Below are positions 59,057 through 64,000 of a DNA stretch of 64,000 nucleotides, piece by piece; position 1 is the first letter of the stretch; the number at the start of each line of letters is the position of its first letter. Both the position numbers and the translations under genes were made by a program. The notes under the pieces are model-generated. The model had not been told where the DNA came from. It saw only the letters and a program-made list of their open reading frames with translations, and searched no databases. The DNA is from Eledone cirrhosa (Eukaryota): assembly GCA_964016885.1 (NCBI GenBank), contig OZ024741.1, positions 3,472,001-3,536,000 of the forward strand, read 5' to 3'.

Positions 59057-60423
59057 TACAGGATACAGTGAGAGGCTTTGGTAGATAAGGAAGTCAGGAC
59101 CAGGTATATAGATACTATTGCATCCAAATTCAGAGAACTCCCTAAGAAAACTGGGGATGTTGAGTGGAGTTTGTTCAGCTCAGGAGTTTCTGCTTCAGCT
59201 GTTAAATGCTGCAGGTGAAAAAGGCTTGGTGTGGCACCAGATGGCCGGAGGACACCTTGGTTCAATCAAGGGGTCAAAGATGCCTACCAAGCAAAGAAGG
59301 AGGCCTACAAAGTTTAGCTTGGAAATAAGTCCCCCTTCTTGCACTTGTGGTACAAGCAGGCATGAAGAATTGCAGCAGTGACAGTAAAGGTGTCCAAAGT
59401 TAAGACATGGGAGGATTTTGGTGTTAAGCTGGAATCCGACTGCTGATTAGTGAATAAAGTGTTCTGGCAGACCATCGGCCTCCACACCTGCTACCAAGAA
59501 CGTGTCTGGGTTTCTCCTCTCTGCAGAGAGGTGAATCCTCGCGAGGTAGAGAGAATACTTTTCAGATCTCCTAAGCCCAATCACAACAGCATCTTCTGAT
59601 GTACATGAAGTGCATCTGGGAGTGGCAAGGCCACTGTGGAAGATGAAATCCGGCCCAAGATGTTAAAAGCCTTAAATAGAGAAGGTATTCTCTGGCTGAC
59701 TCATGTGTACCGGGTGGCCTGGATCTCTGGAAAGACACCTAAGCAATGGCAATTGAGAGTGATAATCCCAATTTTAAAAAAAAGGAGTCAAGAGAGATTG
59801 CTCCAATTACAGAAGGATCTCCTTGTTGAGCCTCCCCACTAAAGTCTATGCTAAGTACCTGGCAAAGAGATGTAGGGAGATTGTCAAGTACAAGCTAGCT
59901 CATGAACAATGCGGTTTTCGACCCGGATGCAGCACAGCCCACCAAATAGTCATAATGCGGCTGGTATTTGAGAAATCGTGGGAGTTCTGCCAAGAGGTAT
60001 ATTTTTTTGTTTTGTAGATCTCGAAAAGGTATATGACTGCGTTCCTCGGGACCTGCTGTGGAAGGTTGTAAAGGAGTGTACGATCGATGGTCAACTTCTT
60101 CTTGCCCTGGTGTCTCTATTTGTGAAATCAGAGAGTCACTTCAGATAGAACAGTTACGTCTCCGATACTACGGGCATGTAGTTAGAATGTCTCAGGAGTG
60201 AATCGCTGGACAGATTTTACTGGCAAGACCAACCGACAGGAGACCCCAGGAGTAGACCCCGAGCAAGAATGTTGGATAACATCCATGAGCTTAGATGGTC
60301 ACTCTTGGGGATCCAGCCGGATCAGTTGGAGACGGTTTCTTCTGACAAGGCCCGCTGGAAGAAGTGTTTGAGGACTCTACCCCACGACCCTCTCTGGAAT
60401 AAGTGGGCGAAGAGGAAGAAGAA
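59057..60423 (+). mobile_element. RTE/Rex3-like LINE, right part, old and internally deleted
   Basis: YRIQ*EALVDKEVR...RTPWFNQGVKDA; EDEIRPKMLKAL..IIPILKK; EQCGFRPGCST; VDLEKVYDCVPR; then jumps near 60120 to LRYYGHVVRM, with no YADD block. Ends gaataagtggg plus a GAA-rich tail. Confidence 0.88.
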
Positions 60424-60430
60424 TATATGT

Positions 60431-60590
60431 ATATATCATAGATTTCTTTCTAAACTAGTTACATGCTGAAGTTTGAATTTGCCTTGTTATTGATTGAACG
60501 GAACGGAATTGTAACAAACCTTGTAGATGACCCACTCTCCGAATGGTTGGAAGATAAAGTCGACCCGGGCAGGACTTGAACTCAGAACTT
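60431..60590 (-). mobile_element. 5'-truncated SINE copy (subfamily B), inverted partner of 63028-63187
   Basis: Minus strand carries B-box-like GAGTTCAAGTCC. Ungapped match, about 13 mismatches in 160 bp, to 63028-63187. Confidence 0.8.
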
Positions 60591-60599
60591 CTTCTATAT

Positions 60600-60735
60600 A
60601 ATGATATCTAAATTACCTACAAGTCCAACAATTTGTTGGGTGGAGAAACCCGATTATATCGACCTCCGTACTTGATCAATACATTATTTTATCGACCCCA
60701 GGAAATATGAACGGCAAAATTGACCTTTGTGGAGT
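60600..60735 (-). mobile_element. degenerate SINE fragment
   Basis: Contains the family core ttattttatcgacccc...atgaacggcaaaattgacct. Confidence 0.65.
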
Positions 60736-60744
60736 GGCAATGAA

Positions 60745-60960
60745 ATAAAACTGTTTCCTTATTTGGACACAAATCCAGCGACTTGAAGGGAGGGGGTCGA
60801 ATATATCAACCCTAGTTCTTCACAGATACTTTATTTTATCAACCCACGAATGGATGAAAGACAAAGCTAACCTTAACAGAACTTGAACTCAACGTAAAAA
60901 GTCGAAATTGAACACCGCAAAATATCTTGCTCGGCGATTTAACAATGCTACTACTCCACA
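60745..60960 (-). mobile_element. degenerate full-length SINE
   Basis: Core tactttattttatcaacccacgaatggatgaaagacaaagctaacct...acttgaactc, plus decayed head and tail. Confidence 0.75.
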
Positions 60961-60977
60961 GGTCCTGTTGATAATGA

Positions 60978-61170
60978 AATAATAATTGTTTCTACTTTGG
61001 GCACAAGGCCAGCAATTACACAGTACATTACTGGTACTTTATTTTATCGACCCCGTAAGGATGAAAGGCAAGGTTAACCTCGGCGGGATTTGAACTCAGA
61101 CCGTAAAGAGAGGTAACTATGCTGGAAAGCATGGCGTCCGACCCTCTACCGATACTGCCAATTCACCGCC
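60978..61170 (-). mobile_element. tRNA-derived SINE (subfamily A), full length
   Basis: Reverse complement closely matches 62043-62233. Has a B box (ggatttgaactc on the + strand), the conserved core and an AAT tail. Confidence 0.9.
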
Positions 61171-61182
61171 TTTGATCATGAA

Positions 61183-61400
61183 ATAATAATGATTTCTAAC
61201 TTAAACACAAGTCCAGTGACTTGAGGAGGGGAAAGTCGGTTAAATCGACCCCAGTACTTGACTGGTACTTTATTTTATCGACCATTGAAAGGATAAAAAG
61301 GAAAACTGACCTCTGTAAGATTTGAACTGAGAACGTAAAAAGTTGTAATTGAATACCGCAAATTATTTTGTTGAACACTTTGACAATTGTACCAGTGGAG
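61183..61400 (-). mobile_element. older SINE copy
   Basis: ctggtactttattttatcgacc...agatttgaactgagaacgtaaa, with an aataataat tail. Confidence 0.8.
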
Positions 61401-61657
61401 CGGCCGAGTTGTTAATAAAATAATAAGGAGACTTGCCACAAAGGAGAATTTTAAATTGTTTACGACCACCATGTTTTCTTGTCGTTTCAAACAGATTGTA
61501 TTGTGTTGTATCTATTGTAGAGTTGTTAGAAACGGTAGAGGACGGGAGAGGGATATTTACTGTATTTATATTTAATAAGTCACTCAACTGTCAAGATGGC
61601 AGCGGGTGTCGTCTGCTGATTAACAACTGCAGCGGGTATTTTGGTAATTAAACATTC

Positions 61658-61806
61658 TACACATATACACACACATACATACATCTATACACGTGCATAC
61701 AAACATATATACATACATATACATACATATACACACATATCAACCATACATACAGAGAGACAGACATATACACACATATATAACACATATACACATTCAC
61801 ACACAT
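61658..61806. repeat. degenerate (CA)/(CATA) microsatellite
   Basis: Directly visible. Confidence 0.9.
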
Positions 61807-61857
61807 GACTGACATTTTAAGTGTTGTCTTCAAATGTGAGGTGTGTATGTGGACCGA

Positions 61858-61975
61858 TGTTGTAGTTGTTGTTGGTGGTGGTGGTGGTGCTGCTGGTGCT
61901 GGTGATGGCGGTGGTTCTGGTGGTGGTGGTGGTGGTGTGTGAGGCGGTGGTGGTGGTGTTGGGTGTGGCGGCGAT
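61858..61975. repeat. degenerate (GGT/GTT/GCT)n trinucleotide tract
   Basis: Directly visible. Explains the poly-V/H/T ORFs in the track. Confidence 0.9.
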
Positions 61976-62042
61976 GTGCAGTTTGTTTAGAGAACATAAT
62001 TCCAATAAAAACAAACAGCTTTACATTATATTGTATATAAAG

Positions 62043-62233
62043 GGCGGTGGATTGGCAGTATCGGTAAGGGTCGGACGCCATGCTTTGAAGCATAGAGTTA
62101 CCTCCCTTTATGATCTGAGTTCAAATCCCGCCGAGGTTAACTTTGCCTTTCATCCTTACGGGGTCGATAAAATAAAGTACCAGTAATGCACTGGAATAAT
62201 AGCTGGCCTTGTGCCAAAAGTAGAAACAATTAT
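62043..62233 (+). mobile_element. tRNA-derived SINE (subfamily A), full length
   Basis: GGCGGTGGATTGGCAGTATCGGT head (A-box-like), GAGTTCAAATCC B box at 62117-62128, core GCCTTTCATCCTTACGGGGTCGATAAAATAAAGTACC, tail GGCCTTGTGCCAAAAGTAGAAACAATTAT. Confidence 0.9.
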
Positions 62234-62255
62234 ATTGTATATATTAAAGAGTGGA

Positions 62256-62290
62256 CGAGGAGGAGGAGGGGGAGAAGAGGAGGAGGAGAG
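62256..62290. repeat. (GAG)n purine tract
   Basis: Directly visible. Confidence 0.85.
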
Positions 62291-62399
62291 ATGCAGGTGG
62301 GGGGTAGCAGACACAGTGAAGTACCGGGATTTATTATCTTCCTAGTTTAGTTACCTCCCATTGAGAGTGAGGGGTTTAAACTCAACCAAGCTTGACCAG

Positions 62400-62432
62400 T
62401 TGCTGCTGATGTTGTTGTTGTTGTTGTTGTTT
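62400..62432. repeat. (TGC)/(TTG)n microsatellite, followed by a 12-bp tandem duplication taacctctgaaa
   Basis: Directly visible. Confidence 0.85.
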
Positions 62433-62528
62433 AACCTCTGAAATAACCTCTGAAATATACCTTCCAGGCGTGGCCATCCCGTCTATATATCTAAGACTAC
62501 ATTTTAATCAATGTGTTATTGATGTTTT

Positions 62529-62630
62529 GGGGTAAATAAAATAAGGTACCAGTCACGTACTAGGGTTAATTTAATCAACTTTGGCCTTACCTCAAATATG
62601 CTGGCCACGTGTCTAAAATAGAAATTAGTA
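62529..62630 (+). mobile_element. 3' half of a degenerate SINE
   Basis: ggggtaaataaaataaggtaccagt...gctggccacgtgtctaaaatagaaa parallels 62160-62226. Confidence 0.65.
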
Positions 62631-62986
62631 TGTACCGCTACACTATTTAATGTGGGGTTCCTTTTTTTAAAACACTCGAGTCGGAGTTAATGGGAAGTTG
62701 GTAGCTATATGTCTTACCTCGTGGTAAGACTGGCACCTCTCCTACCCTAATATGTCGCCTGCCACATGGTCCTGGCCGACAGGATGGAGAATACATTGCC
62801 GCGAGGGGCGGCGATGGAGACGCGCTGGAATAGTCACTCCAACTGGTGGGGCTGGGCCTTACAGGCAACTCTGAACAGGGATGTGGTCCGGGGGCCAAGA
62901 ACGCCGAAAGTCTCCACTGTTACAGCCTCTTCCACAAACTTATCAGAGAGTGGCCGATACTTCAATAATTGTCCCAATTATTCATG

Positions 62987-63187
62987 TGTCGGACAAAACA
63001 CATTGCAGTATTTAATTATAGCCTTTTAAGTTCTGAGTTCAAGTCCTGCCCAGGTCGACTTTATCTTCCAACCATTCGGAGAGGGGGTCATCTGCCAGTT
63101 TTGTTACAATTCCGTTCCCTTGAATCAATAACAAGGAAAATTGAAACTTCACTATGTAACTAGTTAAGGAAGAAATCTATGATATAT
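62987..63187 (+). mobile_element. SINE (subfamily B) ending in (TA)n
   Basis: Partial head gtcggacaaaac..gcagtattt, B-box-like GAGTTCAAGTCC, 3' part shared with 60431-60590, followed by (TA)n to 63207. Confidence 0.8.
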
Positions 63188-63354
63188 ATATATATATATA
63201 TATATATGGGATAACAAGTTATCATTATGGTAATCCAGTTTCCATAGTTAGGTAGCGAGTTCGCGAGAATTCCTATGCAGGTTATACTTGGAGTAATAAT
63301 AGTGAAAGATTGAAGAATAACATGGTCGGCTGTACAACAAGGGGCTTTATTTCA

Positions 63355-63467
63355 AGTATTAACAATTGTTTCATTGATGAGGTGAGTCTAAAGGCCGCTA
63401 ATCACTCGAAGTTGCGTCACTCGACCTTAAATACAGTGTTTACCTCTCATCAAATCATCGGAATACT
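63355..63467 (-). ncRNA. type I hammerhead-ribozyme-like motif (Penelope-type, minimal palindromic stem III), with core mutations
   Basis: Minus strand reads AGUAUU-CCGAUGA-U-UUGAUGAG...CUCAUCAA-U-GAAA-CAAUUG-UU-AAUACU, then AAUAAA. 6-bp stem I, 8-bp stem II, GUU cleavage triplet. Confidence 0.75.
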
Positions 63468-63589
63468 AGAGGTTTTACATATGGCATTGGTATATATAGA
63501 GATACAACGGAGAATCAAAACAATAACATCAATAATAAAAGATAATGATAAAGAGGTAAGGAAGTTACAGATGTAAAAAATAAGTAAAA

Positions 63590-63780
63590 AATAATAATTG
63601 TTTCTACTTTTGGCACAAGGCCAGTAATTAACCAGTGCATTACTGGTACTTTATTTTATCGACCCCGTAAGGATGAAAGGCAAAGTTAACCTTGGCGGGA
63701 TTTGAACTCAGAATGGCAAGGGCCGTAACTCTATGCGTCAAAGCATAACGTCCGACCCTCTACCGATACTGCCAGTCCAT
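63590..63780 (-). mobile_element. tRNA-derived SINE (subfamily A), nearly full length
   Basis: Direct homologue of 60978-61170 and inverted homologue of 62043-62233. Confidence 0.9.
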
Positions 63781-64000
63781 AAGTACAGAATACGATTGCT
63801 GATAATAGTGGTGGTAGTGGGTAAGTGTATGTGGTGGTATGTATAAAGACGTAGTGAGGGTGGAGGTAATACTAACATGAAAAGCAACATTAGATACATA
63901 CATACGTGGTGGTCAAATCTCAGAGGGTTAGAAGTAGAGAATAAAAAATAGTAACAAATGACAGATAAAAGATAAAAAATACAGGACAGGAGACAGAGAG

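Follow-up and report, generated by a model that had tools for sequence, protein, structure and literature searches.

A predicted type I hammerhead with an ~80-nt stem II arm in a broken Hydra-type Penelope-like element of Eledone cirrhosa

The window analyzed here, a stretch of 64,000 nt from E. cirrhosa (contig OZ024741.1, positions 3,472,001 to 3,536,000), carries near its end a minus-strand sequence in which the parts of a hammerhead ribozyme follow one another in order, with two unusual core letters and a very long stem II. This raises the question whether the motif is the damaged remnant of a small solo repeat, as had been supposed at first, or a heritable variant that belongs to a larger element. 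The first 50 kb of the window are filled by a 50-bp satellite (3-50312; ~1,008 copies, 93% matches, 0% indels).

The motif and the element that carries it

The motif has the layout of a type I hammerhead, namely a three-helix junction with an open stem I and the order core, stem II, GAAA, stem III, NUH, and 3′ strand of stem I. Its parts are located as follows:

63355..63467, minus: type I hammerhead motif, 113 nt
63462..63467, minus: stem I, 5′ strand; helix 1 covaries across subfamilies
63455..63461, minus: core CCGAUGA (C3 to A9), with C at position 4
63373..63454, minus: stem II arm, 82 nt, with a U10.1-U11.1 mismatch at its base
63454 and 63373, minus: U10.1 and U11.1, respectively
63453-63446 with 63381-63374, minus: outer 8-bp helix of stem II, enclosing exactly 64 nt
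63428-63422 with 63397-63391, minus: inner helix of the arm
63369..63372, minus: GAAA (G12-A13-A14-A15.1)
63362..63369, minus: stem III palindrome, 8 nt, from A15.1 to U16.1; self-duplex of -6.4 kcal/mol
63361, minus: U17
63360..63361, minus: cleavage site predicted after U17 (triplet GUU) from hammerhead numbering
63355..63360, minus: stem I, 3′ strand
63346..63351, minus: AAUAAA, a putative poly(A) signal

Each hammerhead part listed in the original prediction was recovered at its place on the minus strand, including the 64 nt enclosed by stem II and the further helix inside them; only the palindrome, given as 6 nt, proved to be 8 nt long (63369-63362). From its base outward, the arm is composed of U10.1-U11.1, a proximal helix, an A-rich asymmetric loop, a middle helix of ~12 bp, and a short terminal helix. 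The canonical CUGANGA core and the G10.1-C11.1 pair are replaced in this copy by C4 and U-U. A hexamer similar to AAUAAA is present downstream of the motif in most related families.

When folded alone, a 122-nt piece with the motif is unexceptional (z -1.42; 18 of 200 shuffles were equally stable), and its minimum-energy fold mispairs the core and is 5.7 kcal/mol more stable than the monomer constrained to the hammerhead fold, whose stem III has only 2 bp. The case for the reality of the motif is therefore made by its relatives. Scanning 671,388 fetched bases, from stretches selected because they hold the repeat, with a relaxed type I descriptor yielded 61 distinct matches vs 0 in one locally shuffled copy. 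Across the 3.0 Gb of the genome, exact long-arm patterns matched 3,161 times with C4 and 3,475 times with U4, compared to 4 and 23 times, respectively, in the reversed control. As these counts far exceed those of the shuffled and reversed controls, the motif is not a chance arrangement, and the related genomic copies on which the original prediction depended exist, judged by pattern, in the thousands. The Rfam models yielded no hammerhead match in window positions 60000-64000 at E<=10. They also missed every other motif tried, including short-armed ones in stretches L191 and L194, and the long arm alone thus does not account for the miss.

Around the motif, and in the stretch L031 (G000:C2:3533001-3543000) that overlaps the window end and continues past it, the following features were found:

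63208..64000, minus: 3′ UTR and 3′ pseudo-LTR (pLTR) of the broken element, extending beyond the window
63182..63207, no strand: (AT)13 microsatellite at the insertion junction
63594..63778, minus: ~185-bp short interspersed repeat inserted in the 3′ UTR
L031 3936-3291, same strand as the motif: endonuclease remnant, just outside the window
L031 3984-5162, inverted: RT-bearing piece, next after the endonuclease remnant

Homology to related copies stops at the (AT)n run (63208) on one side and on the other resumes after the inserted repeat and leads out of the window, so that the limits first drawn for the repeat, 63208-63580, were too short. The inserted repeat, which we take to be SINE-like, has a 91% identical second copy in opposite orientation near 62048-62233. 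The search for adjacent RT or GIY-YIG sequences that had been proposed as a check led to broken remnants of RT and endonuclease just past the window end. Because these same-family remnants adjoin the motif, the locus is assigned to a Penelope-like element (PLE); judged from sequence, it is the 3′ end of a broken, 5′-inverted Hydra-type element and not a solo repeat. DNA identity to the tandem copy L097 is 88-92%, except for one stretch of the UTR at 72%; the adjoining remnants in L031 are 89-92% identical to that copy. In itself, the window copy is a commonplace fossil, with stops and frameshifts, the inversion, the inserted repeat, and a ~65-bp deletion near 63239. About 4 kb past the window end there is a second, distantly related Hydra-like element (L031 6701-8821, G000:C2 about 3539700-3541800; 37% protein identity, 519-codon open stretch).

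The reading offered first, a solo pLTR or non-autonomous retrozyme remnant inactivated by private mutations, is very improbable against this background. Many copies in the genome are indeed 5′-truncated, with only about 0.8-1.4 kb in common, and the window copy is defective. The adjoining RT and endonuclease remnants contradict it, however, as do core letters common to hundreds to thousands of copies, and no short tandem array of the motif was found in the window or L031, where the window copy is a single motif lacking a tandem partner. Metazoan non-LTR retrozymes share the PLE-pLTR-derived type I hammerhead (PMC7229834; bioRxiv 10.64898/2026.07.22.740005), but they are short non-coding tandem units, whereas the window motif sits on a protein-coding element; units of this kind with a hammerhead in each are absent from the locus.

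Intact relatives, clade assignment and core letters

From 4,998 candidates of the DNA search, 40 were scored and 30 fetched at 89-100% identity (the close copies below); the protein search gave 31,825 candidates, 150 of which were scored. The relatives include subfamilies A (the youngest, with C4 and a broken palindrome), B (with U9), and C (including the window copy). A sister young subfamily has an RT 78% identical to that of the window family and open frames of 808 codons; seven young copies share 98.0-99.6% identity in the ORF. Each of these seven elements carries two direct-repeat C4 motifs ~3.5 kb apart, one on either side of the ORF. The full layout is pLTR-ORF-pLTR with one motif per pLTR, the upstream one ~280 nt before the start codon. 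The young motif (C4, broken palindrome) has 624 exact matches in the genome vs 0 in the control. Partial tandems that form pLTRs were found in L081, L082, L084-L087, L097, and L199, and an inverted 5′-truncated copy in L031.

The 808-codon frame is a single ORF in which RT motifs precede a VY-x11-YIG motif, as in an RT followed by a GIY-YIG-type endonuclease. Pfam gave no informative match for 7 proteins; the Penelope-like assignment therefore rests on motifs, layout, and homologues. Database homologues at 31-42% identity number 69, most of them nameless. Stated marks of the Hydra clade are RWK, DKT, a CxCx5C linker, CxxC, CxH, and (TA)n targets (Craig et al., 2021, PMC8557442). Both RWK (residue 37) and DKT in place of DKG (residue 120) are present in L084, whose YGFKS stretch is not a strict match to GxKF/Y. 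The CxCx5C linker is kept in 4 of 5 young frames checked, with alterations in L084 and L087; in the window remnants its third cysteine is N in the sense piece and kept in the inverted piece. CxxC and CxH are present in the endonuclease, and insertions adjoin (TA)n, the target preference of the clade. By these marks the element appears to fit the Hydra clade, with whose members it shares the C-terminal GIY-YIG-type endonuclease and the 3′ type I hammerhead with near-palindromic stem III (PMC8557442). The unit of ~3.5 kb is longer than the under 3 kb typical of Hydra elements according to the same source. An octopus member, Hydra-1_Obim (PMC8557442), has a short arm and a motif sequence unlike that of the window family, which is therefore distinct from it.

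C4 and U-U had been regarded as probable impairments of this particular copy, a view that the relatives do not uphold. U10.1, U11.1, and U17 occur in all 30 close copies and C4 in 18 of them; among exact 24-mers of the window subfamily, 130 have C4 and 146 have U4. Of the first 100 matches listed for each form, 5 with C4 and 74 with U4 have G at position 7, and this linkage to position 4 implies that both forms were amplified as sub-lineages. Young intact elements combine C4 with U-U. Since the two features are common to hundreds to thousands of copies, including such intact elements, they are inherited family traits and not damage to the window copy. Whether a consensus restores CUGAUGA and the 10.1-11.1 pair had been proposed as a check: U4 sister copies do exist, but the pair is not restored. 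The RT tree described below did not separate the order of the U4 and C4 changes.

What these letters mean for activity is indicated by other hammerheads. A natural viroid hammerhead with C4, as here, is less active in vitro, yet U4C supports infectivity, and U10.1-U11.1 is the best-tolerated mismatch (cited in Perreault et al., 2011, PMC3088659); single mutants of CUGA scored poorly in a saturation scan (PMC9901934). U4C is rare in the viroid (PMC3088659), whereas here long-armed copies with it number at least 3,161, and it is also carried by a majority of the first 100 short-armed matches listed. By our own count of the Hydra rows in File S2 of PMC8557442, U10.1-U11.1 occurs in 14 of 26 and U17 in 10 of 26, as here; in contrast, C4 occurs in 0 of 26 and loop 2 measures 3-10 nt, while in this family C4 is common and the arm ~80 nt long. 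C4 and the 82-nt arm likely mark a slowed ribozyme.

The core is otherwise strongly kept. Among the 30 BLAST-chosen close copies, departures from the majority base amount to 3 of 300 at fixed core positions and 70 of 2,460 in the arm, compared to 200 of 2,730 upstream and 61 of 1,380 downstream of the motif. C3, G5, A6, G8, G12, A13, A14, A15.1, and U16.1 are constant in all seven family representatives, of which A, B, and C were reached via homology and D, E, G, and H via core-bearing patterns. Position 17, which the search pattern left unconstrained, is C, U, or A depending on the subfamily and G in 0 of 115 motifs. Subfamily B (L091, L092, L094, L096, L099, L100) has U9 with a G10.1-C11.1 pair and C17, a combination present in 17 of 17 motifs of its cluster.

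The stem II arm

The original prediction had treated the long stem II as a possible family variant, and this has been confirmed. For the structural comparison 39 motifs were aligned, drawn from 115 distinct motifs in 22 clusters. The proposed arm and hammerhead structure pairs 86% of the cells in these 39 sequences vs 27-38% for slid controls. Changes on both sides affect 13 of 29 pairs, with 94 such cells compared to 34 +/- 6 in shuffles; as the structure was derived from the same sequences and relatedness inflates the shuffle control, this covariation is support and not proof. Compensatory changes are present in all three helices of the arm. Run with default settings on the 39-sequence alignment, RNAalifold returned no consensus pairs; relaxed settings recovered the arm and mispaired the core and stem I. 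Mutual information on the same alignment placed one proposed pair among the top 30, its signal being dominated by relatedness. Subfamilies A and C share 64% identity in the arm and 48% in the upstream UTR, the latter at the shuffle level of 47-49%. The ~80-nt arm is therefore, as far as such comparisons reach, conserved and covarying across subfamilies while the neighbouring 3′ UTR has been randomised.

Long arms are not restricted to these subfamilies. Families D, E, and G have hairpin arms of 88-92 nt, a pattern for the stem III variants that characterise D and E matched 5,482 times vs 40 times in the control, and long-armed pattern matches total about 12,000 genome-wide. An RT tree (FastTree) retained 44 of 64 rows after 20 database proteins were dropped and family H was omitted for short coverage; its tips are this genome's copies and database homologues. 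In it A, B, C, D, E, and G group together with a FastTree support of 0.998, to the exclusion of the short-armed family, which suggests that the long arm may have had a single origin. Homology of all long arms is unsupported by their sequence, as an arm covariance model recognises only certain types: built on A/B/C/H arms, it failed to detect the 88-92-nt D/E/G arms at E<=1, found no match on the 47-95-nt arms of other families, and gave 15 matches in 22 loci, all of the A/B/C/H type.

This failure speaks for the arm as an unselected fold-back insertion that hitchhikes on a small core which alone matters, a reading that we regard as improbable. It also draws on the abundance of short-armed relatives (8,096 pattern matches vs 93 in the control, C4 in most of the first 100 listed) and on the modest stability of the window arm folded alone (z -1.77). 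Against it, the two strands of the arm are not a recent inverted duplication, compensatory changes occur in three arm helices, arm identity exceeds UTR identity between A and C, and the long-armed families form a single clade in the RT tree (support 0.998).

Part of the perfect 8-bp stem II is peculiar to the window copy. A double change at 63448 and 63379 keeps a pair; of the 7 genome matches with the 5′ change, the window copy alone also shows the 3′ change, and the 6 others have the 5′ change by itself. As it is private to this copy, the pair was rejected as evidence of selection, and it may reflect chance or local conversion. SECIS and kink-turn readings of the arm were rejected by eye, as the helix is too short, the positions are not conserved, and the 808-codon frames lack an in-frame UGA.

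Several other hammerhead groups were encountered in the same genome. L191, L192, L203, and L204 represent a separate, abundant Hydra-like family with a 20-nt stem II, C4, and an identical stem III palindrome. Further U4 hammerheads with stem II arms of 47-95 nt lie at L193 5199, L194 429, L047 8384, L207 1051, L195 5585, L089 2503 and 2989 (486 bp apart), L098 7370, and L100 3137, with no linked ORF in the fetched stretches. Hammerheads with a 14-nt stem II recur at ~420-470 bp spacing in L194 (3985, 4407, 4833) and L091 (1996-2830), and are possibly retrozyme-like tandem units.

Hammerheads with a minimal or palindromic helix III in metazoan PLEs are, according to a review summary, reportedly also treated by Lunse et al. 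2017. Both PLE pLTR hammerheads and octopus Hydra elements have been published before. The metazoan pLTR hammerheads of Cervera and De la Pena (2014, PMC4209133) share with the present ones the type I topology, the position in both pLTRs, the unstable palindromic helix III, and the predicted action as dimers; their helix II of 6-8 bp with a conserved G10.1-C11.1 pair contrasts with the three-helix arm and the mostly U-U or other 10.1-11.1 mismatches seen here. The nearest printed precedent found for a long arm is PLE-X1_sMoe of a spike moss (File S2, PMC8557442), whose enlarged stem II has a 35-nt loop and ~54 nt in all; it differs in belonging to an unrelated PLE clade, in its shorter arm, and in U4. 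No description of an ~80-nt conserved arm or of family-wide C4 in PLEs was found in the literature as searched; precedents may exist in Lunse et al. 2017, in the viroid U4C paper, or in the supplements of PMC4209133.

Stem III, copy termini and the proposed working of the motif

The centre of stem III takes three different forms, and the helix is still palindromic in 5 of the 7 family representatives. In the youngest subfamily the palindrome is broken (self-duplex -0.7 kcal/mol), a point against a strictly dimeric mode of action. In family E, stem I is nearly absent at the canonical register (8 of 8 copies). There (L189 4202-4330, L201 5766-5890, and 6 others) the 8 nt past the predicted cut complement 8 nt within the 3′ portion of the arm, where a pseudoknot or a swapped pairing might be possible. 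The fixed core, the non-G position 17, and the stem III kept palindromic are signs of selection for chemistry.

The 3′ ends of 58 copies cluster downstream of the predicted cut, at places that correspond in the window to:

63299..63301, minus: first recurrent 3′ terminus of the family, ~60 nt past the predicted cut (16 of 58 end at +60/+61)
63208..63298, minus: tail to the second recurrent terminus, at ~+220 in the family (27 of 58 end at +220 to +225)

The window copy reads through the +60 terminus. The element tail between the two termini, ~160 nt, exceeds the 30-40 bp described for PLEs. None of the 58 copies ends at the predicted cut; the template was therefore not a linear RNA ending there, and hence was an uncut read-through RNA or a religated circle. 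Comparison of pLTR identity within and between elements did not separate circular from read-through templates.

For related elements, hammerheads of PLEs are reported to cut weakly as dimers (PMC4209133). The hammerhead of an anole PLE cuts only with its protein and its tail is defined by RT start sites; insertion in vitro does not need cleavage, and no RNA-seq read ends at the cleavage site (PMC11167929). For the hammerhead in the 3′ pLTR of the broken Hydra-type element, we consider it probable that it acts in active relatives as a slow, assisted ribozyme that yields unit-length, possibly circular RNA. A transcript through both pLTRs would be cut at both motifs, where stem III would form between the two palindromes and/or be assisted by the protein that the element encodes, and the resulting unit-length RNA would perhaps be circularised. 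The RT-endonuclease would then nick (TA)n DNA, with reverse transcription starting either ~60 or ~220 nt downstream of the cut; start sites there could account for both clusters of 3′ ends as well as for the partial tandems and 5′ inversions. Cutting would be slowed by C4 and U-U and so become conditional, and the arm probably stiffens the fold or binds the element's protein.

A more specific version, which we regard as unlikely, takes the ~80-nt domain to be grafted into loop 2 as a dock for the RT-endonuclease, so that the protein switches on in cis a ribozyme weakened by C4, U-U, and the broken palindrome. If true, a protein-gated ribozyme would time the production of circular template with no need for a dimer.

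The main alternative holds that the motif descends from a ribozyme whose cutting is now dispensable, the fold and arm being kept to bind or position the RT and the core changes being drift. We regard it as rather unlikely. In its favour, each of the departures C4, U9, broken palindrome, and absent stem I has spread in some family, copy termini lie downstream of the predicted cut, cleavage of the anole PLE is not required in vitro (PMC11167929), and Naiads spread without canonical hammerheads (PMC8557442). Against it stand nine core positions constant in 7 of 7 representatives, of which D, E, G, and H were found by core-bearing patterns, and a non-G at position 17 in 115 of 115 motifs.

The hammerhead of the window, a type I form with palindromic stem III linked to PLEs as originally anticipated, belongs to a lineage that provides natural matched variants on recently amplified elements, namely U4 and C4, A9 and U9, perfect and broken palindromes, and long and short arms. 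The role of the hammerhead in PLEs is an open question (PMC8557442), and such variants make both the need for cutting and the purpose of the arm directly testable. With about 12,000 long-armed matches in one genome and Rfam blind to long-armed motifs wherever tested, ribozyme censuses likely undercount.
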